Origin: an uncultured bacterium | GTDB taxonomy: Bacteria; Cyanobacteriota; Vampirovibrionia; Gastranaerophilales; Gastranaerophilaceae | Direction of reading: 5' to 3' | Assembly: GCA_949284035.1 (NCBI GenBank) | Contig: CASDUQ010000045.1 | Span: 71,170 to 135,169 of the forward strand | DNA length: 64,000 bases | Shown here: one piece after another, positions 45,297-63,354 of the stretch | Position numbering within the stretch: position 1 is the stretch's first letter | How the letters are laid out: every line of letters begins with the position of its first letter | The notes under the pieces: model-generated | The model's input: the letters and a program-made list of their open reading frames with translations, nothing else | Told to the model about the DNA's origin: nothing | Database searches by the model: none | Made by a program: the position numbers and the translations under genes

Positions 45297-45298
45297 AG

Positions 45299-46399: not shown

Positions 46400-47457
46400 A
46401 TAACCTCCCCGGGCAATGAAAATAAAAACTTACAAAAATAGAGAAAAGTTGAAACCAATTCAACCAACTTTTTCTCCGGATTGCTTAATATCAATAAAAC
46501 AAAATGTTTTCTTAACTGTTCAAAATATTTAATTTTATATAAATTTTCCAAAAATTCTACATCTTTTATCTCATAAGAATTATCACAGTATTTTTTATAA
46601 TCCTTTTTTTGTTCGGCAAGAGAATAATACATAAACTGATTTCTTGCCTGCATTATTGTTCCGGAATACTGTTTCTTTAAAGTAAAAATTCCCCATTCCG
46701 TTGATGAAAAGACTCTAAAATTATTTATTATAAAATCTTCAGATATTGTAATATTTTCGGGATTTACATCCAAATAGTTTCCAAACTTCAAATTGTTAAA
46801 AACTTTTAGCGCATTAGAATATGTAAAGTATTGCTCCGGAGACATTCTCCACAATCTTGCGGGGAAAATATCAGTTCCAGCTTTATTATGAGACTCAAAA
46901 TATCTTGAAAATTCAGGTTCTTTAACTTCCGGAATATTAAACAGCTCCTCCAAGTCCCGACGTAAACCTAAATAACACCAATCAGAAATATGAAATAACA
47001 TACTTTGTTTTATACCTTTACAGGTGTTGAACTTTAAAGAAAAAATATCGTAGGCAAAAATTCTGTCTTTAAAAAGTGAAGAAGATTTATTCCTATGTTT
47101 AAAGCTATCAGATAATTTTAAAATATTATCATTTTTAAGAACAAGATCATTCCTCATTCTTAAAACATACTTTCTTTCGGCCTTTTTTATACCATTACGG
47201 CTTGAAATAAGTATTCTGTTTAAACTGTTTGTTTTTTGTTTTTCTGTCTCAAATACAACAGCACCAGGATCATCATTTAAGACAAGAATATCATATAAAC
47301 CATCGTAAGGAGAAACATCAGAATTTTTCCAGGTCGACAAAATAATCTGAGCTTCGGGTAAATACTTTCTAATACTCTTCAAGCAGGGAATAGTCTCACA
47401 AGGGGTAACAGCCCCCTGAATAACTACAGATAAGTCTTTGCTTGAAATTTGTTTCAA
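46384..47457 (-). CDS. WavE-family LPS/capsule synthesis protein
   Basis: LSVVIQG, IILSTW, DDPG, RMRND, FHISDW, SPEQY. Confidence 0.8.
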   Translation of the reverse strand: MKQISSKDLSVVIQGAVTPCETIPCLKSIRKYLPEAQIILSTWKNSDVSPYDGLYDILVLNDDPGAVVFETEKQKTNSLNRILISSRNGIKKAERKYVLRMRNDLVLKNDNILKLSDSFKHRNKSSSLFKDRIFAYDIFSLKFNTCKGIKQSMLFHISDWCYLGLRRDLEELFNIPEVKEPEFSRYFESHNKAGTDIFPARLWRMSPEQYFTYSNALKVFNNLKFGNYLDVNPENITISEDFIINNFRVFSSTEWGIFTLKKQYSGTIMQARNQFMYYSLAEQKKDYKKYCDNSYEIKDVEFLENLYKIKYFEQLRKHFVLLILSNPEKKLVELVSTFLYFCKFLFSLPGEVICRKK

Positions 47458-47581
47458 AATATTCCTCCAGCCTTATAATTTTATACCTTATATTTTATAA
47501 GCGAAAATAAATATTCTTTTACAATTATATATAAAAAGAACAATATAACAAATAGCAAAAAGTATAAAAATTAAATTTAAC

Positions 47582-47962
47582 TTATCTGTCCTTAGCCTGC
47601 CTTAAGACATCCTCTTTATTCATCTTGTCCCAGCTTTCAAATTTTATTACCCTGTCATCTATTGTTATATCTGCATTTGGTTTGCCAAAAAATATTTCAT
47701 CATACTGAATTCCATTATCATCAAGCCAATCAAGAGTAATTTTACCGATATTCTTCATCACCTTACCAACATTATGTCCCTGAGTCTGCATATTTCTTGC
47801 GGTATTTATGATAATAGTATGGCCGTCCGCTTTCAAGCTGTCTATAAATTCTTTAGCCCCGGGCATAGGCTTTACATCTGCATAACTTTCTCCGGATTTC
47901 TTAATTGTACATATCGTCCCATCCAAATCAATACATATTCTGAGCTTCTTTTCCGTTATCAT
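47582..47962 (-). CDS. EcbF/BcbF-like capsule HAD phosphatase
   Basis: CIDLDGTIC, INTARNM, FFGKP..IDDR. Confidence 0.85.
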   Translation of the reverse strand: MITEKKLRICIDLDGTICTIKKSGESYADVKPMPGAKEFIDSLKADGHTIIINTARNMQTQGHNVGKVMKNIGKITLDWLDDNGIQYDEIFFGKPNADITIDDRVIKFESWDKMNKEDVLRQAKDR

Positions 47963-49622
47963 ATCTTACATCCTCATCTTCGCTATCCAAAGTTTCATTC
48001 AGCAATTCTACCGCTCTTATATAAAACATTTTTTGTCTAATAAAATTATCCTTATGGAGAGGTATCATTGATAAGAACAACAAACCTTCTATAAATTTGA
48101 TTTCATTTATATTAAAACCGTTATCAACAGCCAATTTATCAAAAATTTTTTCTAAAACAGAATAGTCAGCACTTGTTAGAATTTTATATTTAAATTGATC
48201 AGAGCATTCCTCCAAACGGAACATTCCCTGAACAATAAAGTCATACAGACCTGCAACACTATGCCTTAACTTAGCAATATCATATCTTGGATCCCCATAA
48301 ATAGTAGGTTCGGCATTTAACCTGCCTCTTGGATCAATCAATTTAAAAATATAATTATTTGAATCAAACAATATATTGGAAAAACAATAGTCTCCATGAA
48401 CAACCGTAAAGTACTCACAACTGCTTAATTTTTCACAAACTGCTTTAATTTTAGATTTAAGAAGAGATATACCCTTATATTTCTTCCCGTTTATATACTC
48501 AAAGTCCTTACCCAGAAGTGTTTGCCAGTATGAATTCTGCAATCTTAAATCACTTAATCGTTCTGCAGTTTTTTCATAATAAAGCCATTTTAAAGCCCCG
48601 GTATCAGATTTTACCTTATAATTTTCAAAAATTTTATGCAAAGAAAACAATTTTTCTATTATACAACGCCAATCTTCAATATTGACCTCACCTGACAAAT
48701 AAAGTTCCTGTAATGATTGATACCCGTATAATTCCTGAGTTAGCTTCGCAAATCCATCATTTTTTTCATATTTTATAAGACGAGGAGTACAAATTTTCAA
48801 CTTATCAGGAATATTTTCATACCATAAAGCTTCATCCTCAAGTTTTTGTATTTTTGTACTTGTTTTAATCAAGAGACCCACTTCGGTATCTACAGAAATA
48901 GAATTAAAACATCTTGCATTAAACAACATATTTTTAGCTTTTATTAAACCTGAAGTATGCCCCAAATCATACCAATCGTCTATCAATCTGGTTTTTAATT
49001 TGTAACGTTCCTGATAAGCTTTAAGAGCAGTAGAAATCTCTTTTTTCAGCATTAATCTTGATTTTATGCAGCAATTTAAAAGATACTTAGTATCAGAAAA
49101 CGCATAATAACCTACAAGAGCTTCTTTATTAATTAAATCAAGATTTTTCTGTTTATCATAAAAATCTATAACATAATTATTAATATCTTTTTCAGCCAAG
49201 CACCAATTGTCTGAAGTTGTAATATCCTTTGAAGTAAAAAGAATATCTGTTTCAGAATCTATACTGTTCGGAATTAATGTGTCCCCAAGAATTACTCTTG
49301 TAGGTAAGCTTAAATCTGCTCTTTTTAGAGAATACTTTAATGAACTTAAAATATTTTTTCTGCTGCTGACCAAGACAAGTTCAATATCAAAACTTTCCTG
49401 AAGGATGTTTTTAATATAGCCGATAAGCTTATAATTATTACTGCATACGGCAATTATAAATTTATCCATCCCATATTTTTTTAAATTATTCAACTGCCAC
49501 CAGATTACGGGTTTTCCGCGCAACGGAAGCAGGGCAAGAGATGAGTAAAAGCCTACAGGCATATTTTCGTTTTTAGTTTCTCCTCCAAAAAGCAAAATAT
49601 TATTAAATTTTTGCACATTCAC
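47928..49622 (-). CDS. Nucleotidyltransferase-like + kinase fusion (BcbE/EcbE-like)
   Basis: LLPLRGKPVI, WYDLGH, VHGDYCFSN, LIDPRG, GDPRYDIAKL. Confidence 0.75.
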   Translation of the reverse strand: MNVQKFNNILLFGGETKNENMPVGFYSSLALLPLRGKPVIWWQLNNLKKYGMDKFIIAVCSNNYKLIGYIKNILQESFDIELVLVSSRKNILSSLKYSLKRADLSLPTRVILGDTLIPNSIDSETDILFTSKDITTSDNWCLAEKDINNYVIDFYDKQKNLDLINKEALVGYYAFSDTKYLLNCCIKSRLMLKKEISTALKAYQERYKLKTRLIDDWYDLGHTSGLIKAKNMLFNARCFNSISVDTEVGLLIKTSTKIQKLEDEALWYENIPDKLKICTPRLIKYEKNDGFAKLTQELYGYQSLQELYLSGEVNIEDWRCIIEKLFSLHKIFENYKVKSDTGALKWLYYEKTAERLSDLRLQNSYWQTLLGKDFEYINGKKYKGISLLKSKIKAVCEKLSSCEYFTVVHGDYCFSNILFDSNNYIFKLIDPRGRLNAEPTIYGDPRYDIAKLRHSVAGLYDFIVQGMFRLEECSDQFKYKILTSADYSVLEKIFDKLAVDNGFNINEIKFIEGLLFLSMIPLHKDNFIRQKMFYIRAVELLNETLDSEDEDVRYDNGKEAQNMY

Positions 49623-50388
49623 CCCCTATATATTTTTTTAACTGTTCAGGGGTACCTACACAATCAAAATGTAATATATCAAAAATTCCAATTTTATCTG
49701 TCATTTTTCTGAGATGATTGTATACAGTCGACATATAAAACTCACCTTTTTGCAAATCATTACAAATAACAAGATCAATTACGGCATTTTTAAACAGTTC
49801 TACATTATTAAAATAGTACATACCGCAAATTGCATGATTGGAAATAACTTCTTTTTCCCTTGTTTCAAGTAAAAATCCGTTTGAATCAATATTTGCATAA
49901 GAAAAACAAGGATTATCCGAATATATAGTCAACAAAGCCGCTGCAAGTTTTCTTGACCTTACATCTAAAATAAAGTTAGAGACATCGTTACAAGCAAAAA
50001 TATTATCAGAATCCGCAAATATAATATCATATTCAGGCCTAATTTTCTGATGAGCAGCCAGAGCAGTAATTGCAGCCCCCATTGTAAGTTTCGGTACAGT
50101 TACAAAATCTAAGGTATACTTATTTTTCAATTCTTCAAGCTGAAGCTTTTGTTCTATAAGAAATTTTTCCTGAAGAACTAAAATTATCTTTGCATTAATA
50201 GTTTTGAAGCTATCAAGAACATGTTCAATCATCATTTTTCCGTTAAATTCAATAAACGGCTTAGGCACATCATACCCCTCGACTGCAAACCTGCTCCCGG
50301 CACCTGCCATAGGAATAACTATATTTATAGGTTCTTTTAACAGTTGATTATCATACAAATTATGATTATTAAATTTCGAAATAGACAT
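49603..50388 (-). CDS. Sugar nucleotidyltransferase-like protein (BcbG/EcbG-like)
   Basis: IPMAGAGSRF..YDVPKPFI, EKEVISNHAICG.YYF, GEFY, GTPEQL. Confidence 0.8.
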   Translation of the reverse strand: MSISKFNNHNLYDNQLLKEPINIVIPMAGAGSRFAVEGYDVPKPFIEFNGKMMIEHVLDSFKTINAKIILVLQEKFLIEQKLQLEELKNKYTLDFVTVPKLTMGAAITALAAHQKIRPEYDIIFADSDNIFACNDVSNFILDVRSRKLAAALLTIYSDNPCFSYANIDSNGFLLETREKEVISNHAICGMYYFNNVELFKNAVIDLVICNDLQKGEFYMSTVYNHLRKMTDKIGIFDILHFDCVGTPEQLKKYIGGECAKI

Positions 50389-50501
50389 AAAATAACCCTT
50401 AAATATTACAGATGATCTAGATAATATACTGATTTACCATTATTCTACCACAAATATTAATTAGAATATCCAATCAAAATATAATATAGCCATGGGTATA
50501 A

Positions 50502-51842
50502 TTATTTAGTTATTGATGGAAACTTTTTATCATCAATTTTATTTAAAATACTATTGTAATATTCAATATCAAGAAGATAAATAGAATAAGGGACTAATCT
50601 TTTATCTTGAAATCTTGAAACTCTTTTACAAAATTTTTCAGGGACATAAGAATACTGTTTAATAATATTCAATTTGTTATTAATTTCATTATATAAATAT
50701 CCGGGAACAAATTGTCTCAAACTACCGTTCTCATTCTGAATTAATAAAATATCAGATTTATTAAATTCGTTAGGGAATTTTAATTTAGTCTGCTGATATT
50801 CCTTCAAACAAAATCTGCATCCGAGTATTGTCAAGACTTTAGTTTTATTTTCAAATAATTTTTCATTTTTAATTGAAAAAACGGTATGAACAGGATCTAA
50901 ATATTTAATAATAAACTTTGTATAAAAATTAGGTAAATCCCTCCAATATTTAAAGTATTTAACCAAATATTTCAAATTTATAAAAAAATTGTGTGAACGT
51001 CTGAAGGTAATATTTTTTATATATTCAGATAACAGAGTTTTACGATACCAATTAAACACATTGTGAGAGTAGCCCAATTTATCTGCGAAACTGTACACCC
51101 ACAAATTATTGAAATAAATTCTCGGGCCATCATCATTATTCAGCCAGCTCTGTACTCCGACACGATTTATAACAATCGGATGCTTATCAGCAAACAAATA
51201 ACAATTCGGCCATTTTTTCGCGATATAGAGAAGAATATAAATATGAATCCAATCTTTTTTATAAAAATTTTCCAAATCAGGAATCCGGTTAAAATACTCT
51301 TTCCTGAAAACAAGATTTGTATTAGGCCAGGCTCTATCTTCAACATCTATTATAAAGTTGTCGGAATAATTGTTATATATTTTATCCTTTACCGTAAATT
51401 TCTCATTTAAAGATTTTCTGGATACAATCAATCCATAATAATCATTTCTCAAATAGTAATTAGATAGAACAAGAACTGATAAGTCCTCGTTATGAATTAA
51501 AACATCATATAATCGTTTTAATCCGCTGGGGGCGTAATAATCATCATCACCAAACAAATGAATAAATTTTCCCTTGGCAATTTCACAGCACTTCATAACG
51601 TTACCGTCATACCCAAGATTGGCTTCATTACGGTTATAACGGATAATTTCAGGGTACTGTTCTTTATATTTTGCCATTATATCAGGTATACTATCTGTGG
51701 AACAGTTGTCTGACACAACAATTTCCACACCCGATAAATTATATTCTTTTATCTGTTTCAAAATAATATCAATATTATTTTGAATATATTTTTCTCCGTT
51801 GTATGTCGGAATACAAATTGATAATAAACAATTATTAGCCAT
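50502..51842 (-). CDS. Glycosyltransferase family 2
   Basis: SICIPTYNG, VSDNCSTD, NLGYDGN, GDDD. Confidence 0.9.
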   Translation of the reverse strand: MANNCLLSICIPTYNGEKYIQNNIDIILKQIKEYNLSGVEIVVSDNCSTDSIPDIMAKYKEQYPEIIRYNRNEANLGYDGNVMKCCEIAKGKFIHLFGDDDYYAPSGLKRLYDVLIHNEDLSVLVLSNYYLRNDYYGLIVSRKSLNEKFTVKDKIYNNYSDNFIIDVEDRAWPNTNLVFRKEYFNRIPDLENFYKKDWIHIYILLYIAKKWPNCYLFADKHPIVINRVGVQSWLNNDDGPRIYFNNLWVYSFADKLGYSHNVFNWYRKTLLSEYIKNITFRRSHNFFINLKYLVKYFKYWRDLPNFYTKFIIKYLDPVHTVFSIKNEKLFENKTKVLTILGCRFCLKEYQQTKLKFPNEFNKSDILLIQNENGSLRQFVPGYLYNEINNKLNIIKQYSYVPEKFCKRVSRFQDKRLVPYSIYLLDIEYYNSILNKIDDKKFPSITK

Positions 51843-51876
51843 ATATCATAACTCTTATTATTTTATTTGACATCTA

Positions 51877-54042
51877 TTAGATATCCTCTAAAGTTTTCAT
51901 AAGATCAACTTCTGTTAATTTTACAGGATTATTAGATAATCTATTTAAATTTACAGACTTTACAACAAAATCCTTATCAATATCTATAAAATTTGTTCTC
52001 TTTAAATTTATATCATCAAATAACTCTACAAAATATTCTTCTGCATTCTTTATACCTAGTAATTCATAAATTTCCTTTACTCTGCTTACGACAAAATCAA
52101 AACCTCGTTTATCGTTACAATTTTGAGTATTAACATATAAATTAAATTGCATCAATTTTGCAATAAATAAAGATACAGCATAACCATGAGGGAAACCATA
52201 TTCTTTTGTCAAAACATATGACATTGCATGTGCTGCAGTAGTTCTAGATATATTTATAGCTTTCCCTGCCAAATTTGAAGCCAGTGCCATATTATTAGCA
52301 GCATTTATATCTTCAGTATTAACAAATTTTGCAAGATTATCTTTACATAACAAAATTGCTTGTTTCGCATATTCTCTACTAACCGGAGTTGATCTTACAG
52401 CCCAATAACTTTCTATAGCATGGCAAAATGCATCCATTGCTGTACAAGCCTTAATATACCGTGGAGAACCATTCAAAAAATTACTATCTACAATTGCATA
52501 TTCAGGTAAAATAGATTTATCATCCAATGAATGTTTTACCCCATCTATATAAATTACTGCAAATTGTGTTGCTTCAGAACCTGTTCCGGCTGTAGTAGGT
52601 ATTGCAATAAGTTTTTGCTTAGACTTTGCATAAACTCTATAAGCCTTTGCAAAATCTATCACACTTCCTCCACCAACTGCCAATATTATATCAAAATTCT
52701 TATCAATAGTGTTTATAGCTCTTTTAATATCAGCCTCTTTAGGATTTGTTTCAAAATCATTATAATAAACTATATTTATATCTGTTAACTCTTTTTCAAT
52801 GATTTGTTTAAATTTTTGATAAGATTTTTTCCCAGTAAAAACAAGAGCACTCTTTATATCTTCAATTTTCAAAATGCTAGATAACTTTTCAATAGCTCCA
52901 CGATAAACAAATTCAATCTGTTCAAGATTTTCCATAAAAATCTTTTTATTTTCTTGCGGTTTTTCCTTTGGTCTACCGAGGTTATCCCTAGCACCACATT
53001 TAACTTTTATTTCCAGAAAAGACATACATTTATTAGAAATAAATTCTGGCAACACTCTGAGAAGCTCGGATTCAGTTGAAACTGTATAAGATTTTTGATA
53101 TCCACAATCTAAAGCAATCTTTGCTAGACTGGATTTATAGACTGCAGTTGGCTGTGAACCAACAGAATCATGAGCTTCATTATTAAATACAATATGTTTA
53201 AAATTTACTAATTCTTTTGTTGCATTTACGGTTAAAGCTCCTTGGTGCATTAAACAAGCCCCATCACCATCAAAACAATATATATTCCTATCTAACTTTT
53301 CTAGAGCTATTCCCAGAGCAATAGAACTTGAATGTCCCATTGAACCAACGGTTAAAAAATCTTGCCTATGAGATTGTCCTAATCGCTCTCTTATTTCATA
53401 AAGTTCTCTGGAAATATGCCCAGTAGTAGAAACTACAATATCATTCAATGACAAACATTTTATTATAGTTTCGATTGCATATTCCCTACTCATTGTATAT
53501 GAACTTATTTTTTTATTCTTTAAAAGATATTTTTCAAACGTTCCTTTTTTAATAATAAATGCATATGAACAATTTGTTTCACGCATATAAACAAAAGCCT
53601 CATTAATCTTTTTTTTAGCTTCTGAAATATCTTCAGGCAAAACACTGTATTTAATTCCCATCGCATCTAGCAACTTATCAGTAACCTTACCCTGTTTTAT
53701 ATGCTGTGGTTCATCTTTTTTCCCAGGCTCTCCTCTCCATCCAATCAACATGAATACAGGGATATTATAGACTTCTTCATCAACTAAAGAAAGAAGTGGA
53801 TTTATACAATTTCCAATTCCAGAATTTTGCATATAAACACAACCAATATTCCCAGTTGCAAGGTAATGTCCAGCCGCAAGAGCAATTGCATTCCCTTCAT
53901 TTGCTGTAATTGTATGATGCTTTTCGTCTACATTATCAGTAACATATGCACAAAAATCTTTTAACAAACTGTCTGGAACCCCACAATAGCATTCCACATC
54001 ATTTTGTTTTAAAATATTAAATAAGTCTGCAACATTTATCAT
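51877..54042 (-). CDS. aepY: Phosphonopyruvate decarboxylase fused to Fe-containing alcohol dehydrogenase (phosphonoacetaldehyde reductase)
   Basis: GVPDSLLK, ANEG, MQNSGIGN, EPQH, VGSMGH, DGDGA; then AVGGGSVID, IPTTAGTGSE, DAFCHAIESYW, TTAAHA. Confidence 0.9.
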   Translation of the reverse strand: MINVADLFNILKQNDVECYCGVPDSLLKDFCAYVTDNVDEKHHTITANEGNAIALAAGHYLATGNIGCVYMQNSGIGNCINPLLSLVDEEVYNIPVFMLIGWRGEPGKKDEPQHIKQGKVTDKLLDAMGIKYSVLPEDISEAKKKINEAFVYMRETNCSYAFIIKKGTFEKYLLKNKKISSYTMSREYAIETIIKCLSLNDIVVSTTGHISRELYEIRERLGQSHRQDFLTVGSMGHSSSIALGIALEKLDRNIYCFDGDGACLMHQGALTVNATKELVNFKHIVFNNEAHDSVGSQPTAVYKSSLAKIALDCGYQKSYTVSTESELLRVLPEFISNKCMSFLEIKVKCGARDNLGRPKEKPQENKKIFMENLEQIEFVYRGAIEKLSSILKIEDIKSALVFTGKKSYQKFKQIIEKELTDINIVYYNDFETNPKEADIKRAINTIDKNFDIILAVGGGSVIDFAKAYRVYAKSKQKLIAIPTTAGTGSEATQFAVIYIDGVKHSLDDKSILPEYAIVDSNFLNGSPRYIKACTAMDAFCHAIESYWAVRSTPVSREYAKQAILLCKDNLAKFVNTEDINAANNMALASNLAGKAINISRTTAAHAMSYVLTKEYGFPHGYAVSLFIAKLMQFNLYVNTQNCNDKRGFDFVVSRVKEIYELLGIKNAEEYFVELFDDINLKRTNFIDIDKDFVVKSVNLNRLSNNPVKLTEVDLMKTLEDI

Positions 54043-55361
54043 TATTTAGCCCCCGGAATTAATGTAATAACTTCTTTGATAGGCATACAATACTCTTCTG
54101 ATGCCTCTTTACATCTATGATTATTAAGAATAGACTTTGCAGTATTAACCATTGCAGGATATGCTGCTCTTAACAAATGATTTGCATAAATTACAATATT
54201 TATACCATTATCTATTAATTCCTGCTCTGTTACCTGATTATATGAGGAAGGCACTACTACAAGAATTTTCCTATTTGGTAATTTATTGTATAACCTTGCA
54301 AATTCTTTAATTTCAGCAAAATCCTTTTTACGAGAATGAATCATTATTCCATCTGCACCAGCGTCCAAATATATTTTTGCTCTATTTATTGCATCATCCA
54401 TTCCCTGCTCTAAAATCAAACTCTCAATGCGTGCAATAATCATAAAATCTTCTGTAACTTGAGCTTGTTTTCCTGTACGTATCTTTTGTGCAAAATCTTC
54501 TGGAGTATCTTGCTGTTGAAATACCTCTGTACCAAATAAAGAATTTTTCTTTAAACCGACTTTATCTTCTATAATAATAGCTGAAACGCCAAGCCTTTCC
54601 AAAGTTTTTACAGTAAAAATAAAATGTTCTTGAGGTCCACCGTTATCACCATCATAAATTATTGGTTTTGTAGTAACTTCAAGAATATCGTTTAAAGTAT
54701 CCATTCTTGATGTTGTATCCAAATATCCTATATCAGGCTTTCCTTTAGCAGCAGATTGAGTTAATGATGAGATCCAAATTCCATCAAACTCTACATTATG
54801 TCCATTTTCTTCTATACTTGTATTTTCAACTATCAAACCAGATAGTCCATTATGAGCTTCACAGATAGTTACTATCTCTTTCGAATCAAGTAATCTTCTT
54901 AATCTATGACATCTAATCTCTGGAGTGGTCCCAACTTCTTTTAACACTTGGTTCAACTTTGTAGAAGAAATTCCTTCAGTATAAGGAATATCAATAACTT
55001 TTCCTCCCCATTTTTGCATTACTTCAATTATTCTCTGTCTTGTTTCTGCCTGAATACCGGATTTCCAATCATCACCGTGAAGTACATAATCCGGTTTTAT
55101 CTTTTCAAGATTCGGAACATAATCCAGTGTTTCTTGAGGAACAACTCGAGTAATACCTTTAACATTTTCAATAATAGTTTTTCTTTGTTCAAATGTCATA
55201 TAAGGTAAACGTTTGTAACTTGCAATAGCTTTATCCGTAAGTAGACCAACTATAAGTTCTCCGCCACCTTCTTTTTCCAAAAGTTTTCTTGCCTCATTTA
55301 TAATATTTAAATGTCCAGGATGTAATAAATCCGCACTCATTCCAATATAAATTTTTACCAT
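54042..55361 (-). CDS. aepX: Phosphoenolpyruvate mutase with N-terminal cytidylyltransferase domain
   Basis: HPGH and HGDDW; [18 protein letters not shown] (EDKxxxxxNS), IARIES. Confidence 0.95.
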
Positions 55362-55373
55362 GTTAATAACTCC

Positions 55374-56528
55374 TTATTCTACGATATCTGCTAACAACTC
55401 TTTAGATATTTCTTTATACTCCTCAAAATGTTTAGATTTAACTGTAAGTGGAATCGTTTTGAAATCTCCATAAATCTTTTCTAAACATTTATCAATATTG
55501 TGGGGCGCCCAGAATTTCATTCCCTCAAAATCAATTTGCTTCAATGGAAATATATCAGATTTAAGAAAATATTTACGATATTTATATGCAAAAAAAGTAA
55601 AATTATCTATACCATAATAAATTCTATCAGTTCTTTTATTTATTATAGGATCATTTTTAATTAAATGATCTATAAGCTCTGAAAGTTCTCCAAATGATTT
55701 ATTCCCACGTTTTTTAGAAATTTCATTTATATAATTTTGATAATCTTTTTTCTTAAATTTATTAGGGTAGTTATCCATTGAAAAGATATCAATCACCTTA
55801 AAATCTCTTATCGTACCCTTTATTAGTTTAAAACATATTGGCATTTTAAAACAAAATGTTTTATTTTTATACTTATCAAAATTTTTAATAAGTTCATTCA
55901 TATAATTTGACCAATTCCAATTCGTGCTATCAACAACTGGATATTTTGTAGTAAAATACTCCACTGCCTTTTCATAGTCATCTCTCATTAATACGAAATC
56001 AACATCTTCATCCCAAGGGATAAACCCATTATGATATTTAGCACCCAGAAGTGATCCATAAAATATTATGGCTTTAATTCCTGTTTCTTGTTCTAATTCA
56101 GATAACATTGTATCGCAATATTTTGCACTTTCCAACTGATAGATTCTTAACTTACCAGTTGCTGATTTAATTTTTGTTCTATCAACTTTCTTTATAAATC
56201 TATAATAATTATAGGAATCTTGTACGTAAGTTTTATAACTAACCCCATACTGTTCACTATGCATTTTTATAGTATTATATAAAGTATCATCTTTTATAGA
56301 ACTAGCAGCTAAATAATCAAGCATCTGCATCATTTCTCTATAAACTGTACTTTTAATAGATATTAAAGATTGTTCGTAAATATTTTTATCACTTATAAAA
56401 TCTTCACTTTCTAAATTATGGATAAACTTAAAATTCATATAATTAATTTTAAACTTAAACTTAACACCTAAAATTCTCACAATTTTATGGTTATTATCTT
56501 CATTTATTGAAAAGAGTTTCTCTAACAT
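55374..56528 (-). CDS. LicD-family phosphotransferase
   Basis: YGSLLGA.YHNGFIPWDEDVDF, IDIF, YGDF. Confidence 0.9.
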   Translation of the reverse strand: MLEKLFSINEDNNHKIVRILGVKFKFKINYMNFKFIHNLESEDFISDKNIYEQSLISIKSTVYREMMQMLDYLAASSIKDDTLYNTIKMHSEQYGVSYKTYVQDSYNYYRFIKKVDRTKIKSATGKLRIYQLESAKYCDTMLSELEQETGIKAIIFYGSLLGAKYHNGFIPWDEDVDFVLMRDDYEKAVEYFTTKYPVVDSTNWNWSNYMNELIKNFDKYKNKTFCFKMPICFKLIKGTIRDFKVIDIFSMDNYPNKFKKKDYQNYINEISKKRGNKSFGELSELIDHLIKNDPIINKRTDRIYYGIDNFTFFAYKYRKYFLKSDIFPLKQIDFEGMKFWAPHNIDKCLEKIYGDFKTIPLTVKSKHFEEYKEISKELLADIVE

Positions 56529-56574
56529 TTTTCTTCCTAGCTTTTATTCCAAATCTATTCTATTATTCACAACA

Positions 56575-57552
56575 TTAAAATCTTGCTTGAGGGTAACCCC
56601 TTGCAACTTTCTTTTTATAATGTTTTGCCCTTATAGCAATTATCTTATTTAGTATATTTATACAAAATATATTTCTATATATTAGACTTTCAAATTTTCC
56701 AAAAACATTTCTTCTGACAAGCTCATCTAAAAATTCATACCAAGTTAAATATTTTGATAGAACTGACCAATTGTATAAAAAATATGAAAAATTCCATAAG
56801 AGAGGTTTATATAAAAATCTATGTTTCGTATATATTTTACTTAAGTCTTGTATTATATTCCAAATTTCATTAGGGAATGGTCCAGTTGAGAGCGTATTTG
56901 AATCAGAATTGTTATGTTGTCGCCAACGCATACAAATTCCTTGTATAAAAATAATATCCCCCAAATTATTTAATTCAAACATAAACATATTATCATGAAG
57001 TTTTCCATATCTTTTAGGATTATAAGCGATTTTTTTATATGCAGCTGTATTATAAATAGCATCGGCAAAAACTGTGCGATGAATTAATAATTGTAAAAAC
57101 ACACCATTATTTTTTGAATAATAATGATAATTCTTATACAAAGCATTCCAATTATTATTATCAACATTCCATATTATACTTTTATGCCCTGTACACATAA
57201 CAGCTTGAGGATGAATTTTAAACAAAGTCATTGCAGTATCAATATATTCAGGATGAATTGCATCATCGTCATGAAAAATAGCAGTATACTCATTAGTAGC
57301 CAATTCTTGCGATCTTATAAAATTTCCTGCATTTCCAAGATTTTTTTCATGAGTAATCACCTCAATATCTCTATCCGGATGTTGTTTTTTTATATCTTCT
57401 ATAACATCAAGAGTGTTATCTGTACTACAATTATTCAAAATTTTAATTTTAAAACCTGTAGCAGTCTGAGAACATAAACTCTCTAACATTATTCTTAAAT
57501 ATTTTGCACGATTATATGTCAAAACGAATACATCTAAATTGTTACACTCCAC
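56575..57552 (-). CDS. Glycosyltransferase family 2
   Basis: LTYNRA, NNCSTDNT, NLG..GN, FHDDD. Confidence 0.9.
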   Translation of the reverse strand: MECNNLDVFVLTYNRAKYLRIMLESLCSQTATGFKIKILNNCSTDNTLDVIEDIKKQHPDRDIEVITHEKNLGNAGNFIRSQELATNEYTAIFHDDDAIHPEYIDTAMTLFKIHPQAVMCTGHKSIIWNVDNNNWNALYKNYHYYSKNNGVFLQLLIHRTVFADAIYNTAAYKKIAYNPKRYGKLHDNMFMFELNNLGDIIFIQGICMRWRQHNNSDSNTLSTGPFPNEIWNIIQDLSKIYTKHRFLYKPLLWNFSYFLYNWSVLSKYLTWYEFLDELVRRNVFGKFESLIYRNIFCINILNKIIAIRAKHYKKKVARGYPQARF

Positions 57553-58399
57553 TACTTATCTCCTCTTTTATACTTTCATAAAAATGAAACATTCCGTCTT
57601 TGTAAGATGTAAATTTAAAATCATTTACAAGATTCAATAATTTTGTATTATCTCCTGTATATTCCTTATTCATTCCGGGATTTTTTACTATGATTTCAGA
57701 TTTATAATCAGAAAAATCATTAACTATTTTTGCTAAATCTAAAATTTCTATACTTTCCGTAGGGGTTACGTTTATAAACTTCTCCTTTGTGGGATGATTT
57801 ATAAAATATTCAACAACCTTACAGAAATCATCAATAAACAGAAAATCAAATTTCACATTTTGATTTAAAACTATAGGCTCTTTGGCTATATTTGCATTCA
57901 CTATACAGGATGTAACACGCGATTTATCTTCACCTGAACCATAAATCCCGAATAATCTTAGATTTAAGATATTATCTCTTTCCTCTATCATTTTTGAAAT
58001 TAGATATTTTGAATATCCGTAAGGATCTTTCGGAATACTTTTTCCAAAATCACTTTCCTTAATCTTGCAAAGCGGACGACTCTTGTCATATTCTGCACCT
58101 GATCCGATTGTAATCATTGGACGCTCATTTGATGTTAACTCCGCCAAATTTTCAAACATTTCAATATTAGGCTTTGCTACATCCTCAAGCGTAGCATCCG
58201 GAGTAATTCTAACACCGCAAGAGGCTGAATGAATAATATATTCTATATTATTTACTTCGACATATTTTTTTACAGCATCTTTATTAAGCAAGTTTAACTG
58301 AAAACTTCTTGGCATAAAGAGATTAAATTTTCCTGATAAAGATTTTTTAATATGCGAGCCGATAAATCCACCCGAGCCTGTTAATAATATATTTTTCAC
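57542..58399 (-). CDS. NAD-dependent epimerase/reductase (extended SDR)
   Basis: TGSGGFIG, GSGAEY, YGYSK, LRLFGIYG. Confidence 0.9.
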   Translation of the reverse strand: MKNILLTGSGGFIGSHIKKSLSGKFNLFMPRSFQLNLLNKDAVKKYVEVNNIEYIIHSASCGVRITPDATLEDVAKPNIEMFENLAELTSNERPMITIGSGAEYDKSRPLCKIKESDFGKSIPKDPYGYSKYLISKMIEERDNILNLRLFGIYGSGEDKSRVTSCIVNANIAKEPIVLNQNVKFDFLFIDDFCKVVEYFINHPTKEKFINVTPTESIEILDLAKIVNDFSDYKSEIIVKNPGMNKEYTGDNTKLLNLVNDFKFTSYKDGMFHFYESIKEEISSGV

Positions 58400-59283
58400 T
58401 ATTCCTCTCCAAAATATAATCCGAATTGCTTTTTGATAAACTTTTGGCTGCCAATATAATGTGAGAAAGTGTCAGGAATACCTATTCTTTTGAATTTAAC
58501 ACCTTTCCCGCTTTCTGCAATCACCTCAGCAACGGCACTGCCCAACCCGCCGACAATACTGTGTTCTTCCATAGTATGAATTTCAACACCGTCATTGACC
58601 AGCTTTTCAATTATGTTTTTATCAATCGGTTTAACAGTATGCATACTTATGAAATAAGGATTGCGCCCTTCTGCCTCAAGTTGTTTACAATAACCTGCCG
58701 CGTCAGGAAGCATATTGCTTGTTGCAATTACTGCAATATCTTTTCCCTCTTTTATTACAGAAGCCTTTCCGATTTCGATTTTGTTATTATCAAAAATACC
58801 TCTGTTATGACGTCCAATTCTTATATACATCGGTTTATTGCTATTAACGGATTGACGCACAATCTGCTCAGCCTCATTGTTATCACCAGGACAACAAACT
58901 GTCATATTAGGCAGGCTTCGCATCAAAGATATATCTTCAATAGCATGGTGAGTTGCTCCCGCAGCTCCGTATGTAAACCCAGCACCTATACCGACAAGCT
59001 TCACGTTATTATTCATATAAGCAACATCCAGACGCACCTGCTCAAAGGCTCTTTCAACTAAAAATGGAATTATTGTATACACATAAGGTTTTTTACCTGC
59101 AAGAGCCAATCCGGCAGCAAGAGAAACAGCATTTTGCTCTGCTATACCACAATTTATTGAACGTTCCGGAAACTTCTCAAAAAACGGTTCAAGAACAGAA
59201 AAACCCATATCAGGAGTAATTAATACAATATCCTCATCTTTTTCAGCCAGCTCAATTAGGGTATTTATAAACGTTTTTCTCAT
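58399..59283 (-). CDS. Transketolase-like protein, C-terminal (pyrimidine-binding) subunit
   Basis: GIAEQN, GATHHA.ED, HTVKPID, EEHS..GGLG. Confidence 0.9.
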   Translation of the reverse strand: MRKTFINTLIELAEKDEDIVLITPDMGFSVLEPFFEKFPERSINCGIAEQNAVSLAAGLALAGKKPYVYTIIPFLVERAFEQVRLDVAYMNNNVKLVGIGAGFTYGAAGATHHAIEDISLMRSLPNMTVCCPGDNNEAEQIVRQSVNSNKPMYIRIGRHNRGIFDNNKIEIGKASVIKEGKDIAVIATSNMLPDAAGYCKQLEAEGRNPYFISMHTVKPIDKNIIEKLVNDGVEIHTMEEHSIVGGLGSAVAEVIAESGKGVKFKRIGIPDTFSHYIGSQKFIKKQFGLYFGEE

Positions 59284-60080
59284 TAATATTTCTCCTCAAT
59301 TTCAGCTAAAGCAATTTTCAACTGTTCATCATTAGGTGATTTATAGTGCCACTCAAGCCTATTTTCCATGAATGATACTCCTTTCCCCTTAGTTGTATCT
59401 GCAATAATTGCAACCGGTTTATCGCTTTTATGAGTTAAAGCTTGTTTCAATTCATCAAGATTGTTTCCGTCAATAACCAGAGTGTCAAATCCGAATGCCC
59501 TTACTCTTTCTGCAATGTTTGACTGATCTATAACATCATTGGTAGCTCCAAAACCTTGAAATTTATTATAATCAACAATAAATACAAAATTATTGAGCTT
59601 ATGAGTAGAAGCAAACATTAAAGCTTCCCAAACAGAACCTTCGTTACATTCGCCATCCCCGCAGATTACAAAAACTCTGCCGGAATTTTTGTCCATTTTT
59701 TTTGCGAGAGCAAAACCAGCACCCAAAGATGGGCCATGCCCTAAAGAGCCTGAAGAAACTTCAAAAAACGGAGATTTTTCCTTGTCTATATGACAAGGAA
59801 GAGAACCGCCGTCTATTGAATAATTTTCAATATAATCAAAAGATAACAACCCCTTATGATACAAAACCGAGTAAAGAGCTGCACTTGCATGTCCCTTGCT
59901 CAATATAATAATATCCCTGTCAGGAGAAGTTATATTGTCTTTGTTTATATTTGCAACATCAAAGTATAAAGTATATAATATATCGACAACACTCATGGCA
60001 GCACCGATATGTGATACTTTTGCTTTATGCACCATTTTTACTATTGTTTTTCTTATCTCTTTCAATATTGAATTTTTCAT
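59283..60080 (-). CDS. Transketolase-like protein, N-terminal (TPP-binding) subunit
   Basis: SKGHA, GSLGHG, GDGECNEGSVWE, KGKG. Confidence 0.9.
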   Translation of the reverse strand: MKNSILKEIRKTIVKMVHKAKVSHIGAAMSVVDILYTLYFDVANINKDNITSPDRDIIILSKGHASAALYSVLYHKGLLSFDYIENYSIDGGSLPCHIDKEKSPFFEVSSGSLGHGPSLGAGFALAKKMDKNSGRVFVICGDGECNEGSVWEALMFASTHKLNNFVFIVDYNKFQGFGATNDVIDQSNIAERVRAFGFDTLVIDGNNLDELKQALTHKSDKPVAIIADTTKGKGVSFMENRLEWHYKSPNDEQLKIALAEIEEKY

Positions 60081-60102
60081 TATTTCACACCCATTAAGTC
60101 TC

Positions 60103-61491
60103 TTAACAAGTTCCTTTTCCCGAAACTACACAAACATCAGAAACTTTACTATTGATAAATTCCTTTATAGTCCCCGCAATTCTGTCAATTTCTTCATCAC
60201 CAAGTGCAGGGAAAGTACCTACCCAGAAAGTATTATTCATAATAAAATCTGTGTTGGGTAATAATTTATAATGCTCTTCAGTTAATTCTTTAGAGTTTAT
60301 TAATTCGGAATTTCCTATTCTTAAATCAACATCATTGTCAACAATCATAGGTTGTCTCAAAATATTACCTGCGAACAATTGTCTTGTTCCCACATTATGG
60401 TTTTCCAAATATTCAACCATTTCTTGTTTCGTAAACGGCGCATCTTCTTTTACAGAAATTAGATATCCAAACCAAGACGGTTTTACTCCTTCCTTAATTT
60501 TGGGAAGAATTAAATAATTCTGCATATCAGACAATTTTTCAGTCAAACGGTCTGCATTATGCGTTCTAATACCTATAAATTTATCCAATTTATCAATTTG
60601 AGAGCATCCTAAAGCTGCCTGCCAATCAGTAATTTTTAAGTTAAATCCTATATGAGAATAAGTATATTTGTGGTCATAGCCGAATGGTAGATTGCCCAAC
60701 TGCTGAGAAAATCTTTTTCCGCAAACACCATCACGTCCCGGCGGACAGCAACAATCTCTGCCCCAATCTCTAAATGACATAATTATTTTGTATAATAACG
60801 GATCATTAGTTATTACGGCACCGCCCTCTCCCATTGTTAAATGGTGAGCAGGGTAAAAACTAAATGTTCCAATATGTCCTATTGTGCCGATTTTTTTGCC
60901 TTTATATTCCCCACCCAGAGCATCACAGCTGTCTTCTATAACCCATAAGTTGTATTTTTCGGCAAGTGCCATTATTTTATCTAAATCATAACTGTTACCC
61001 AGCGTATGAGCCAAGAATATTGCTTTTGTTCTAGGTGTAATGGCCTCTTCAATTTTATCAGCATCAATATTATATGTTCCGATTTCACAATCCACAAAAA
61101 CAGGCACCATTCCATGCTGGATAATCGGATTTATAGTTGTCGGAAATCCTGCTGCTACTGAAATAACTTCATCACCTTTTTTCAAAGCTCTTTCACCCAA
61201 TTTGTGAGATGTCAAAGCTGAAAAAGCCAATAAATTAGCACTGGAACCTGAATTAGTTGAAAGTGCATATTTAACACCAAGATATTTGGCAAACTTTGTT
61301 TCAAACTCTTTATTAAATCGGCCTGCAGTAAGCCACATATCCAGAGAAGCATCAATCATATTTAACAATTCTTCTTCACCAAGAAGTTTTCCGCTCGGCG
61401 GAATATAATCAAAAACGCGTTTTTCCCCGTAAACTTCTTTATAATATTCTTTTGCTGCTTCTTTTACCTTATTACGTAATTCTTGTTCCAT
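60103..61491 (-). CDS. rfbH: CDP-4-keto-6-deoxyglucose 3-dehydratase (DdhC/RfbH)
   Basis: NSGSSANL, FPTTINP, EDSCDALG, SFYPAHH.TMGEGG, WGRDC, YDHKY. Confidence 0.9.
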   Translation of the reverse strand: MEQELRNKVKEAAKEYYKEVYGEKRVFDYIPPSGKLLGEEELLNMIDASLDMWLTAGRFNKEFETKFAKYLGVKYALSTNSGSSANLLAFSALTSHKLGERALKKGDEVISVAAGFPTTINPIIQHGMVPVFVDCEIGTYNIDADKIEEAITPRTKAIFLAHTLGNSYDLDKIMALAEKYNLWVIEDSCDALGGEYKGKKIGTIGHIGTFSFYPAHHLTMGEGGAVITNDPLLYKIIMSFRDWGRDCCCPPGRDGVCGKRFSQQLGNLPFGYDHKYTYSHIGFNLKITDWQAALGCSQIDKLDKFIGIRTHNADRLTEKLSDMQNYLILPKIKEGVKPSWFGYLISVKEDAPFTKQEMVEYLENHNVGTRQLFAGNILRQPMIVDNDVDLRIGNSELINSKELTEEHYKLLPNTDFIMNNTFWVGTFPALGDEEIDRIAGTIKEFINSKVSDVCVVSGKGTC

Positions 61492-62552
61492 TTTATACTC
61501 TCCTCATACTCTTGTATTTGCTTCAAAGTGAATTCGTACATATCTCTATCCCGTGTATAGAAATGTTTATACCACTCAACTGTTTTGCCTATTGCTACAT
61601 CAGCGGTATAAGTCGGTGTCCAGCCTAAGACTTTTTCAGCTTTTTCAATATTCAGCATAAGAAGATTTGCTTCATGCAAATTATCTTTTTTATGGACAAC
61701 AACTTCACCCTTACCGTAATTATCTACAACCATTTGCGCAACTTCTGCGACTTTGAGAACACTGTCCTCATTAGGTCCGAAATTAAAACCTTCAGCATAT
61801 TTTTTACCATCCTCTAAAAGTTTCTGTCCCAAGAGCAAATATCCGGATAACGGTTCTAAAACATGCTGCCAAGGTCTTACAGCAACCGGATTTCTAATTT
61901 CTATTTTTTCTCCTGCATTAATATATCTTACACAATCAGGGATTAATCTGTCTAAAGCCCAATCTCCGCCGCCAATTACGTTACCTGCTCTTGCCGTAGC
62001 CATTGCATAAGCACTTTCACTCTGTAAAAATGAACGTCTGAAAGATGATGACATAATCTCAACACATCCCTTGGACGATGAATACATATCATACCCGCCC
62101 ATAGGTTCATCTTCTTTATACCCTCTGTTTATCTCTTTATTTTCATAACATTTGTCAGTGGTAACATTTACAAATGCTTTTACAGAAGGAGTTTTTTGTG
62201 CAGCTATCAATAAATTTAAAGTACCTATAACGTTTGTTTGATATGTCAATAAAGGTTCAGAATAAGATAATCTTACCAGGGGCTGAGCAGCCAAATGAAA
62301 AATTATATCGGGCTGAAATTCCAATATTGTTTTTTCAAGTTTACCGGTATCCAAAATATTTCCGATAACAGATTTATATATTCTGTTTCCAATATTCAAC
62401 TCTTTGAACATTGACGGGTTAGTATTAGGCTCTAAAGAATATCCACAGACTTCCGCTCCTAATGACGTCAGCCACAAAGCAAGCCAACTTCCTTTAAAGC
62501 CTGTATGTCCGGTTAAGAAGACTTTTTTACCTTTATAAATATTATTATACAT
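61464..62552 (-). CDS. rfbG: CDP-glucose 4,6-dehydratase
   Basis: TGHTGFKGSW, HLAAQPLV, TTDKCY, YSSSK, RPWQHVLEPLSGY. Confidence 0.95.
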   Translation of the reverse strand: MYNNIYKGKKVFLTGHTGFKGSWLALWLTSLGAEVCGYSLEPNTNPSMFKELNIGNRIYKSVIGNILDTGKLEKTILEFQPDIIFHLAAQPLVRLSYSEPLLTYQTNVIGTLNLLIAAQKTPSVKAFVNVTTDKCYENKEINRGYKEDEPMGGYDMYSSSKGCVEIMSSSFRRSFLQSESAYAMATARAGNVIGGGDWALDRLIPDCVRYINAGEKIEIRNPVAVRPWQHVLEPLSGYLLLGQKLLEDGKKYAEGFNFGPNEDSVLKVAEVAQMVVDNYGKGEVVVHKKDNLHEANLLMLNIEKAEKVLGWTPTYTADVAIGKTVEWYKHFYTRDRDMYEFTLKQIQEYEESIKWNKNYVIR

Positions 62553-63354
62553 TTACTACCTCTTTACTATTTAGCCATTTTGCCCAAGGAGCGTTTTCCT
62601 GCTCCCACATAGCAGTCAAATCAATCTTATCCTTAAGTGTATCCATCGGTTTCCAGAAACCGTCATGTTTATAAGCACACAATTGACCATCTTCGGCAAG
62701 TTTTTCCAAAGGTTCGCGTTCAAAAATAACTTTATTATGAGAGCCGTCAATATAATCAAATATTTCAGGTTCACAAACAAAGAAGCCTCCGTTAACCCAA
62801 GCCCCATCGCCCTTCGGTTTTTCTTTAAATGACATAACATCATTTGAAGATGAAAGATTTAAGGCACCAAATTTTCCTGAAGGCTGAACAGCCGTCATAG
62901 TAAGATACTTGCCTTTTGCTTCATGGTATTTAATAAGTTCTCGGATATTTACATCCGAAACACCATCACCGTAAGTCAACATAAACCTTTCATTTCCGAT
63001 ATATTTCTGGGCTTTTTTGATACGACTGCCAGTCATGGTATCCAAGCCTGTATATAGCATTGTAACCTTCCATGGTTCAGTTTGAATTCTATGGATATCA
63101 ACAGTATTGTTTAACATGTCCACTGTTATATCAGAATATTGCTGATAATAATGAACAAAATAGTCCTTAATAACATGAGATTTATAACCCGTTAATATAA
63201 TAAAATCATTAAACCCGTAATAAGAGTAAGATTTCATAATATGCCATAATATAGGCTTACCGCCAATGGCAACCATTGGCTTTGGTATCAATTTTGTTTC
63301 TTCCGATAATCTTGTTCCCAAACCTCCTGCAAGTATTACAACCTTCATTAACAT
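62545..63354 (-). CDS. rfbF: Glucose-1-phosphate cytidylyltransferase (likely start 63348)
   Basis: LAGGLGTRLSEET..PKPM, LTYGDG, NGGFF, FWKPMDTL.D. Confidence 0.95.
   Translation of the reverse strand: MLMKVVILAGGLGTRLSEETKLIPKPMVAIGGKPILWHIMKSYSYYGFNDFIILTGYKSHVIKDYFVHYYQQYSDITVDMLNNTVDIHRIQTEPWKVTMLYTGLDTMTGSRIKKAQKYIGNERFMLTYGDGVSDVNIRELIKYHEAKGKYLTMTAVQPSGKFGALNLSSSNDVMSFKEKPKGDGAWVNGGFFVCEPEIFDYIDGSHNKVIFEREPLEKLAEDGQLCAYKHDGFWKPMDTLKDKIDLTAMWEQENAPWAKWLNSKEVVNV

Follow-up and report, generated by a model that had tools for sequence, protein, structure and literature searches.

The three consecutive open reading frames (ORFs) described here occupy positions 51877–56528 on the minus strand of a 64,000-nucleotide stretch of DNA (hereafter, the window) from contig CASDUQ010000045.1 of assembly GCA_949284035.1, which represents an uncultured bacterium of the Gastranaerophilaceae. 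The GroEL encoded in the window shares 91–92% identity with proteins bearing the names Candidatus Gastranaerophilales or Gastranaerophilaceae. The host belongs to the Melainabacteria/Vampirovibrionia, the non-photosynthetic gut relatives of cyanobacteria, and the metagenome runs containing the locus came from chicken gut and manure. The ORF listing of the window recovered the three frames at 51877–54042, 54042–55361, and 55374–56528, in agreement with the limits of the initial annotation. The genes, in the order in which they are read, and the domains of their products are as follows:

55374–56528, minus strand: LicD-family phosphotransferase, 384 aa (Pfam LicD, PF04991)
54042–55361, minus strand: fusion of a cytidylyltransferase (CyTase) with phosphoenolpyruvate (PEP) mutase, 439 aa (CTP_transf_like and PEP_mutase)
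54927–55361, minus strand: CyTase domain, residues 1–145 of the 439-aa protein (PF01467)
54045–54926, minus strand: PEP mutase domain, residues 146–439 of the 439-aa protein (TIGR02320)
51877–54042, minus strand: fusion of phosphonopyruvate decarboxylase (Ppd) with an iron-type alcohol dehydrogenase (Fe-ADH), 721 aa (thiamine diphosphate [ThDP] and Fe-ADH domains)
52924–54042, minus strand: Ppd domain, residues 1–373 of the 721-aa protein (TIGR03297)
52894–52989, minus strand: Ppd-ADH fusion junction, residues 352–383 (alignment and AlphaFold2 model)
51880–52902, minus strand: group III (Fe/Zn) ADH domain, residues 381–721 of the 721-aa protein (Fe-ADH and ADH_Fe_C)

The LicD gene is separated from the CyTase-mutase gene by 12 nt, and the stop codon of the mutase gene overlaps the start codon of the Ppd-ADH gene in the sequence TAATG.

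In the 439-aa protein, Pfam matched CTP_transf_like at residues 9–136 and PEP_mutase at residues 154–412, and the NCBIfam equivalog for PEP mutase, TIGR02320, scored 389.6 bits against a cut-off of 319.55 over residues 154–437. [quoted passage not shown] Residues D237/D239, R311, and H342, which align with the Mytilus PEP mutase (1M1B), were invariant in an alignment of eight CyTase-mutase proteins. The best PDB match of the CyTase domain was that of Fom1 (5X3D; E 1.6e-55), with 83 of 134 residues identical (62%), and the nucleotide-binding motifs HPGH (14–17) and ISST (131–134) are kept. The Fom1 CyTase domain turns 2-hydroxyethylphosphonate (HEP) and cytidine triphosphate (CTP) into cytidine monophosphate (CMP)-HEP (Rice 2019, PMC6697681; review PMC9088020), and fusions of CTP_transf_like with PEP mutase make up 23.6% of PEP mutases (Rice 2019, PMC6697681). 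The CyTase domain of the window is of the Fom1 type, and the reaction proposed for it is HEP + CTP → CMP-HEP + pyrophosphate, with HEP as its presumed substrate.

The 721-aa protein showed the Pfam domains TPP_enzyme_N (7–117), TPP_enzyme_C (229–345), Fe-ADH (381–519), and ADH_Fe_C (532–666). The Ppd equivalog TIGR03297 matched residues 16–371 with 478.5 bits against a cut-off of 312.5 (NCBIfam), and the ThDP motif GDG-x25-NN at 259–288 and the cofactor-activating E49 were invariant in 58 homologues. The route from PEP to phosphonoacetaldehyde that had been read from the mutase and Ppd domains was thus borne out at the sequence level, both lying above their equivalog cut-offs with the EDKxxxxxNS and ThDP motifs intact.

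The ADH half carries the NAD(P) motif GGGS at 457–460 and the metal ligands D537, H541, H605, and H619. In PhpC, the HEP dehydrogenase (EC 1.1.1.309), the metal site is formed by D191/H195/H260/H274, and HEP is contacted by K157, T256, Y264, and R349; Y264 is strictly conserved and is replaced by Phe in sulfoacetaldehyde reductases (2026 study, PMC13576164). Residues K503 (34 before D537), T601 (four before H605), and Y609 (four after H605) lie at the exact PhpC offsets of K157, T256, and Y264 and were invariant in 58 of 58 fusions; apart from H541, all the ligand and contact residues listed were invariant across this set. A Tyr four residues after the third ligand is therefore found in both PhpC and the ADH half, and the group III ADH fold and metal site are shared by PhpC, the sulfoacetaldehyde reductase 6JKO, and the protein studied here. 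A Foldseek search using the 721-aa model returned Fe-ADH matches at a target-normalized TM-score of ∼0.8, with 6JKO at rank 2; no solved chain spanning both the Ppd and ADH halves was found in this search, and query-normalized TM-scores were ≤0.44. Genomic linkage to pepM and ppd was used as a criterion for PhpC by Lockwood 2022, and the ADH is linked to both, to Ppd by fusion and to the mutase gene by translational coupling. The prediction of HEP from the fused Fe-ADH, made by the initial annotation, thus gained support at the sequence level from the four metal ligands and the reported PhpC set of HEP/phosphonate-binding residues.

Some details of the ADH half speak against its assignment to PhpC. 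The residue equivalences are drawn from spacing and not from an alignment to a characterized PhpC sequence; R701, although invariant in 58 fusions, has an offset of +82 as against +75 for PhpC R349; and TIGR03405 (Phn_Fe-ADH/PsrA), although the best-scoring ADH model, gave the domain 161.2 bits, below its cut-off of 423.7. PhpC enzymes are reported to be very divergent, with identity as low as 27%. The fusion to Ppd, a score below the TIGR03405 cut-off, and the occurrence of either His or Gln at position 541 among the fusions set the ADH half apart from PhpC. Taken together, the case for the ADH half as a phosphonoacetaldehyde reductase, based on fusion, context, and residue offsets, is strong but not proven. 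In public databases the fusion proteins are named only “phosphonopyruvate decarboxylase,” a name that gives no hint of the reductase or of the branch point to HEP. Residue 541 (52420–52422), the second metal ligand, is split among the 58 fusions between His (25) and Gln (33), and the window has His; a difference of the same kind is reported for PhpC (His195) as compared to sulfoacetaldehyde reductase (Gln196).

In the third protein, of 384 aa, the first 147 residues form an N-terminal extension and residues 148–354 a LicD domain (PF04991; 90.5 bits, cut-off 22.6); no hydrophobic segment was predicted in it. The DxD region of the ribitol-phosphate transferase FKRP and the motif GSLLG...IPWDEDVD of this protein align with each other (WDEDVD here, WDYDVD in FKRP). 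The LicD protein is proposed to move the HEP-phosphonyl group from CMP-HEP to a sugar hydroxyl. The roles given earlier to the CyTase (activation) and LicD (transfer) are consistent with the Fom1 domain as closest PDB match and with the conserved DxD of LicD. Two points count against the LicD step: LicD-type phosphonate transfer has been proposed, with no demonstration found in the literature searched, and the two fusion genes occur with no detectable LicD in three related loci (L001, L005, and L007). LicD is not obligatory, as some relatives have only glycosyltransferases nearby, or none. In one environmental locus (L135, 8836–10074), a TagF-like protein of the CDP-glycerol glycerophosphotransferase family lies beside the CMP-HEP module in the place of LicD, and sulfotransferase-fold proteins lie beside the module at L005 9377–10510 and, with a faint match, at L089 5661–6710.

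The pathway proposed from these assignments has five steps. The C-terminal mutase domain of the 439-aa protein would isomerize PEP to phosphonopyruvate, and the N-terminal Ppd half of the 721-aa protein would decarboxylate the latter to phosphonoacetaldehyde and CO2, pulling the unfavorable mutase equilibrium. The equilibrium of PEP mutase strongly favors PEP, and decarboxylation renders such pathways irreversible. The fused PhpC-like ADH would then reduce phosphonoacetaldehyde with NAD(P)H to HEP, and the N-terminal CyTase domain of the 439-aa protein would convert HEP and CTP to CMP-HEP. Finally, with CMP-HEP as donor, LicD would form a phosphonate ester at a sugar hydroxyl of a polymer that the neighboring glycosyltransferase and CDP-sugar genes build and that could be an O-antigen, a capsule, or a glycolipid. 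In the Ppd-ADH fusion, the enzyme predicted to consume phosphonoacetaldehyde is placed beside the one producing it. The CyTase-mutase fusion joins steps 1 and 4 and is therefore unable to channel by itself. The earlier statement that two fusions cover four steps holds as far as four activities reside in two proteins, but only Ppd-ADH joins consecutive steps. It is probable that the three-gene module makes CMP-HEP from PEP and that the HEP group is passed to a cell-surface glycoconjugate, and this reading is held with good confidence. The chemistry assigned to steps 1–4 is by analogy to the homologues Fom1, Fom2/Ppd, and FomC/PhpC; for step 5, the acceptor, the HEP specificity of this CyTase, and aldehyde channeling, the proposal goes further and is accordingly more tentative.

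The pathway type is known, and the novelty is modest, consisting of the single-polypeptide Ppd-PhpC enzyme and the prevalence of the cassette (LicD, CyTase-mutase, and Ppd-ADH genes) in Gastranaerophilales. No paper mentioning a Ppd-ADH fusion and none linking Gastranaerophilales to phosphonates was found in the literature searched. The initial annotation had held that a glycan decorated with C–P bonds would be notable for this lineage; the pathway itself is not unusual.

The cassette takes a central place in an 18.7-kb array (45299–63968) whose 17 genes are co-directional and whose other members include two family 2 glycosyltransferases (GT2), an RfbF/RfbG/RfbH-type cytidine diphosphate (CDP)-hexose set, two more nucleotidyltransferase-like proteins, and two WavE-family proteins:

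56575–57552, minus strand: GT2, directly upstream of LicD (Glycos_transf_2, 87.4 bits)
50502–51842, minus strand: GT2, 446 aa, 34 nt downstream of the Ppd-ADH gene (Glycos_transf_2, 82.9 bits)
57542–63354, minus strand: upstream sugar-nucleotide genes of the array (Pfam and NCBIfam)
45299–50388, minus strand: downstream genes of the array, including two WavE-family lipopolysaccharide (LPS)-synthesis proteins (Pfam, NCBIfam, and PDB matches)

The upstream set codes for an RfbF-like nucleoside triphosphate (NTP) transferase, a CDP-hexose 4,6-dehydratase-like protein, RfbH, a split transketolase-like pair, and an epimerase/reductase, the genes overlapping or lying ≤22 nt apart. These genes are probably the source of the HEP-receiving glycan. 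The downstream set comprises a 261-aa NTP_transf_3-like protein, a 564-aa protein with an NTP-transferase-like N-terminus, a 126-aa ORF, and the two WavE-family proteins. The 261-aa protein was considered as a second phosphonate activase of the PntC/LicC type and rejected, as its PDB matches were sugar-1-phosphate nucleotidyltransferases (best 4EVW), with neither LicC nor PntC among them. The upstream GT2 is kept beside the cassette in same-species contigs (L081, L083, and L084), and the downstream GT2 is also found in contig L082. A scan of 45000–64000 for promoters and terminators showed no enrichment over shuffled sequences, and boundaries of transcription units are therefore not claimed.

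The sugar genes at 58399–63354 were also viewed on their own. The RfbF-like, RfbG-like, and RfbH (CDP-hexose 3-deoxygenation) genes are followed by Transketolase_N, by Transket_pyr with Transketolase_C, and by the epimerase/reductase, and no RfbI-type reductase was seen at 58399–63354. We take this gene set to resemble the two-carbon branching of a deoxy-sugar, following the logic of yersiniose or AviB1/B2. A similar trio of Fe-ADH and split transketolase occurs in locus L026.

LicD or another transferase might place HEP on a lipid or glycolipid head group instead of a polysaccharide, giving a phosphonolipid or phosphono-glycoglycerolipid. The best NCBIfam match of LicD is the Mf1 diacylglycerol cholinephosphotransferase of Mycoplasma, at 50 bits far under the 225-bit cut-off; a distant Ppd-ADH fusion (L088) stands in a lipid-type context with a stand-alone mutase, a CarS-like CTP-transferase, acyltransferases, and a fatty-acid desaturase; and in two further loci (L099 and L111) the mutase is paired with an LPG_synthase_TM protein. 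The cassette of the window, however, is embedded in an array of GT2, CDP-sugar, and WavE LPS genes with no lipid-synthesis gene, and glycosyltransferases also flank the relatives L005 and L007. A lipid acceptor is thus considered unlikely as compared to a surface glycan.

HEP, unlike 2-aminoethylphosphonate (AEP) or phosphocholine, keeps a free hydroxyl after transfer, and therefore further units or bridging might follow. LicD, TagF-like, or sulfotransferase-like enzymes might add units or bridge through HEP (sugar-O-P(O)(O-)-CH2CH2-O-X), which would give a teichoic-acid-like chain with hydrolysis-resistant C–P bonds in its backbone, and the two bifunctional proteins might work as one four-activity complex releasing only CMP-HEP. 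This extension of the proposal is speculative and rather improbable.

All window ORFs of ≥300 aa were scanned against Pfam for aminotransferases, and no AEP transaminase (Aminotran_5, PhnW/AEPT type) was found among them, nor beside the cassette in seven related contigs (L081–L087). The sole aminotransferase of the window is the RfbH-type CDP-sugar 3-dehydrase at 60103–61491 (NCBIfam, 671.7 bits against a cut-off of 423), which upholds the earlier statement that the window lacks an AEP transaminase. For a test of co-occurrence, the alignment of eight CyTase-mutase proteins was used alone, with no ADH in the query, to fetch 80 metagenome loci with full-length CyTase-mutase fusions (60–84% identity) from marine, sediment, brine, and gut samples. 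The loci were classified by tblastn and Pfam, and 62 of the 80 were evaluable, the remaining 18 being too short for judgement. Both Ppd and ADH were present, with Ppd first, in 50 loci (49 by tblastn and L133 by Pfam); ADH stood ahead of Ppd in four; two had ADH with Ppd not detected; and six were devoid of ADH despite enough flanking DNA. A Fe-ADH thus lies beside CyTase-mutase in 56 of the 62 evaluable loci (90%), mostly in the order mutase, Ppd, ADH. The Fom1-type CyTase-mutase is therefore tightly coupled to a HEP-forming reductase, which supports HEP as the activated species. Among the six loci lacking ADH, aminotransferases were found in L142 only, the other five having no transaminase.

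Alternatively, the final head group could be AEP or another amino-phosphonate, with a transaminase encoded elsewhere in the genome, the CyTase activating AEP, and the ADH taking part in a side branch or in salvage. Among phosphonates, AEP is the most common (56% of neighborhoods), and PF01467-mutase fusions occur in some AEP clusters (Li & Horsman 2022). In L142, a related CyTase-mutase adjoins Aminotran_5, and the CyTase of this aminotransferase-linked locus shares 57% identity with Fom1, a value inside the 55–76% span of the remaining loci; identity to Fom1 was for this reason rejected as a discriminator between HEP and AEP. Of the genome, the search for a transaminase covered the 64-kb window. 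Against these points, which tell against HEP, stand the covalent fusion of the ADH to Ppd, found in at least 120 clusters with active-site residues intact; the lack of a transaminase both in the window and next to the cassettes of other genomes; and the presence of ADH, not of a transaminase, in 90% of the evaluable related loci. AEP as the final head group is consequently regarded as very unlikely, and HEP is retained as the predicted product.

The module has several relatives among known systems. In the fosfomycin pathway of Streptomyces wedmorensis, Fom1 (CyTase-PEP mutase), Fom2 (Ppd), and FomC (Fe-ADH) follow the same course from PEP through phosphonopyruvate, phosphonoacetaldehyde, and HEP to CMP-HEP, with the same CyTase-mutase fusion, the CyTase domains being 62% identical. 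The two differ in that Ppd and ADH form one polypeptide here and that the host is a gut Melainabacterium, not a Streptomyces; CMP-HEP is the proposed LicD donor here, whereas it is a transient handle for methylation in fosfomycin synthesis. The phosphonyl-tailoring (Pnt) pathways of Treponema denticola, Atopobium, and Olsenella (Rice 2019, PMC6697681) share the logic of a phosphonate converted to a CMP conjugate and moved to the surface by LicD-like or glycosyl transfer, and their activating transferase is often fused to PEP mutase, as it is here. They make AEP via a transaminase and use PntC of the LicC fold (PF12804), in contrast to the predicted formation of HEP via a dehydrogenase and the PF01467 fold in the present case.

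Neighborhoods of pepM-aepY-phpC with genes for “lipopolysaccharide choline phosphotransferase” (LicD) have already been noted (Lockwood 2022), and the HEP branch makes up 8.5% of neighborhoods (Li & Horsman 2022). The surveyed pepM-aepY-phpC neighborhoods have the same gene set and predicted phosphonate-ester product as the window, while a Ppd-PhpC fusion or Melainabacteria are not reported in these two surveys. According to papers citing the original work, HEP esterified to polysaccharide occurs in two actinomycetes and is abundant in marine organic matter (Yu 2014; Repeta 2016). The product predicted here from genes alone belongs to the same class, though phyla and glycans differ. The phosphonoglycans of Glycomyces sp. 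and marine dissolved organic matter of high molecular weight are said to contain HEP in phosphonate-ester linkage.

As a further alternative, CMP-HEP could lead on to a small phosphonate molecule that diffuses, akin to fosfomycin or of another kind, instead of a surface decoration. Fom1, Fom2, and FomC of fosfomycin producers catalyze the same four reactions, and in loci of human-gut CAG:729-type genomes the cassette is trailed by genes for a 357-aa radical-SAM protein and an ABC exporter. In the array of the window, Fom3 (B12-radical-SAM methyltransferase), Fom4 (epoxidase), FomD (DUF402), HEPD/MPnS, and a resistance kinase or other resistance genes are absent, the Pfam and NCBIfam searches of 45299–63968 giving no match to Radical_SAM, B12-binding, cupin, or DUF402, and LicD and glycosyltransferases flank the genes instead. 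A small-molecule product is accordingly held to be highly improbable. The CAG:729-type loci (L085–L087, 12196–17283) are of interest in themselves: three ORFs with no Pfam match precede the cassette, which is followed by Acyl_transf_3, the 357-aa radical-SAM protein, and a 947-aa ABC exporter, a downstream chemistry unlike that of the window.

The Ppd-ADH junction lies in one uninterrupted reading frame. The identical 721-aa protein was called on nine contigs from several samples, and the junction (∼52890–52995) was covered gap-free, with neither inserted nor missing bases, by contigs of three other public runs. Among the best 120 clusters (at 90% identity) listed, which showed 60–91% identity, all had the same five Pfam families, and 118 of the 120 were 690–735 aa in length. 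Junction residues 352–383 belong to the better conserved stretches, with no indels there in 58 aligned fusions. The AlphaFold2 model of the 721-aa protein had a mean predicted local distance difference test (pLDDT) score of 89.8 and a predicted TM-score of 0.82, with no segment below 50 and a pLDDT of ∼80 at the junction; in the model, the last Ppd helix (362–374) leads straight into the first ADH strand (376–379) with no flexible linker. This rigid, conserved junction would be compatible with a fixed geometry and may allow channeling of the aldehyde. The initial annotation had named an inactive ADH domain and a frameshift artefact at the junction as grounds for refutation. A reading of this kind, in which the fusion arose through faulty sequencing or assembly or the gene is in decay and its ADH half inactive, finds support in the relative L092, where Ppd and ADH stand in different frames with a small overlap; it is practically negligible given the nine contigs, the indel-free junction in other runs, the at least 120 clusters with the same architecture, the conserved junction with invariant catalytic residues, and the confident fold prediction. 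In L092 itself (8–1535 of a 1.6-kb contig), a close relative, the two parts, Ppd with 74% and ADH with 54% identity, are in different frames, and the Ppd frame meets its stop a few bases past the point where the ADH match begins; this may be a genuine split or a sequencing frameshift.

The nearest genomic relatives of the fusion are metagenome-assembled genomes (MAGs) of Gastranaerophilales. An exhaustive HMMER search of 1.84 billion cluster representatives returned ∼13 further full-length fusion clusters of 37–51% identity amid thousands of single-domain matches. In addition to L088 with its lipid-type context, such distant fusions include L089, adjoining CyTase-mutase and a sulfotransferase-like gene, and L090, adjoining CyTase-mutase and a weak LicD. 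The Ppd frame ran on into ADH in none of the 80 co-occurrence loci, while all Gastranaerophilales controls were called fused by the same script. In Firmicutes (Hungatella hathewayi, Ruminococcus flavefaciens, and Lachnospiraceae), the order is mutase, ADH, Ppd in separate genes; full-length fusions in Hungatella and Ruminococcus, considered at one point, were dropped on these tblastn coordinates. Two stand-alone ADHs (P0145 and P0190), 55–63% identical to the ADH half, lie on contigs of <2 kb, one beside a Ppd fragment, and provide no independent context. A survey of domain architectures had been called for by the initial annotation, and the distribution obtained here is restricted (Gastranaerophilales and the ∼13 further clusters, which are defined at 50% identity). 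The Ppd-ADH fusion is a recurrent but minority variant, dominant only in Gastranaerophilales, and is a lineage-restricted variant of a widespread module normally having separate, adjacent Ppd and ADH genes.

The complete cassette, in the order LicD, CyTase-mutase, Ppd-ADH, is found again, between flanks of quite another kind, in CAG:729-type genomes of the human gut as well as in L002, L003, and L090 and therefore behaves as a portable module; in the assembly collection, 110 indexed blocks contain the CAG:729-type protein. If the proposed pathway is correct, many Gastranaerophilales, human-gut CAG:729-type strains included, would carry a phosphonate ester on a surface glycan. These bacteria are widespread in the gut, and to our knowledge very little is known of their envelope. 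A phosphatase-resistant ester could affect phage adsorption, immune recognition, and gut phosphorus cycling. The fusion would also represent a natural single-polypeptide catalyst from phosphonopyruvate to HEP and a clean system for testing protection against aldehyde loss.

In two Treponema MAGs (L021 and L022), a stand-alone ADH and a GT2 come after a CyTase-mutase 62% identical to that of the window, and tblastn detected no Ppd within the locus. RfbF- and RfbG-like genes 62% and 47–49% identical to those of the window lie ∼3.5–4.5 kb downstream. This likeness suggests exchange of the glycan gene set between gut phyla.

Other elements of the window were also recorded. For five consecutive plus-strand ORFs of 353–402 aa at 35412–41088, in the lowest-GC part of the window, Pfam gave no match at E ≤ 1e-5, and hydrophobic segments were not predicted in them; after these ORFs come a CMP-sugar synthetase-like gene (CTP_transf_3), an HMGL-like gene, and a HAD hydrolase. 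Two large ORFs at 8660–12106 (1148 aa) and 26284–28287 (667 aa) likewise matched no Pfam family at E ≤ 1e-5. Just 3′ of tRNA-Ser(GCT), a 190-nt element (30274–30463) is closed by a 25-nt inverted repeat with 96% complementary arms (30274–30298 and 30439–30463) and has a minimum free energy of -80.5 kcal/mol (z = -10.75 as compared to shuffled sequences). It matched no Rfam family. In four gut metagenomes, the contig depth of its interior was 5–15 times that of its flanks, and breaks of contigs were numerous. The element could represent either a mobile element resembling a miniature inverted-repeat transposable element or a widely shared structured RNA. An inverton at 30274/30463, near small recombinases and controlling glycan loci, was considered and not supported, the interior being multi-copy and the contigs showing no strand-switch joints. 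The recombinases, two members of the Phage_integrase family of 180 and 175 aa (31188–31730 and 32015–32542) and thus of FimB/FimE size, lie between tRNA-Ser and a low-GC (23–27%) plus-strand glycan locus (32542–44117). The 180-aa recombinase is 75.6% identical to a 180-aa integrase ∼2.5 kb upstream of the cassette in the CAG:729-type loci L086 and L087, a likeness that hints at recombinase-associated variable surface-glycan islands.

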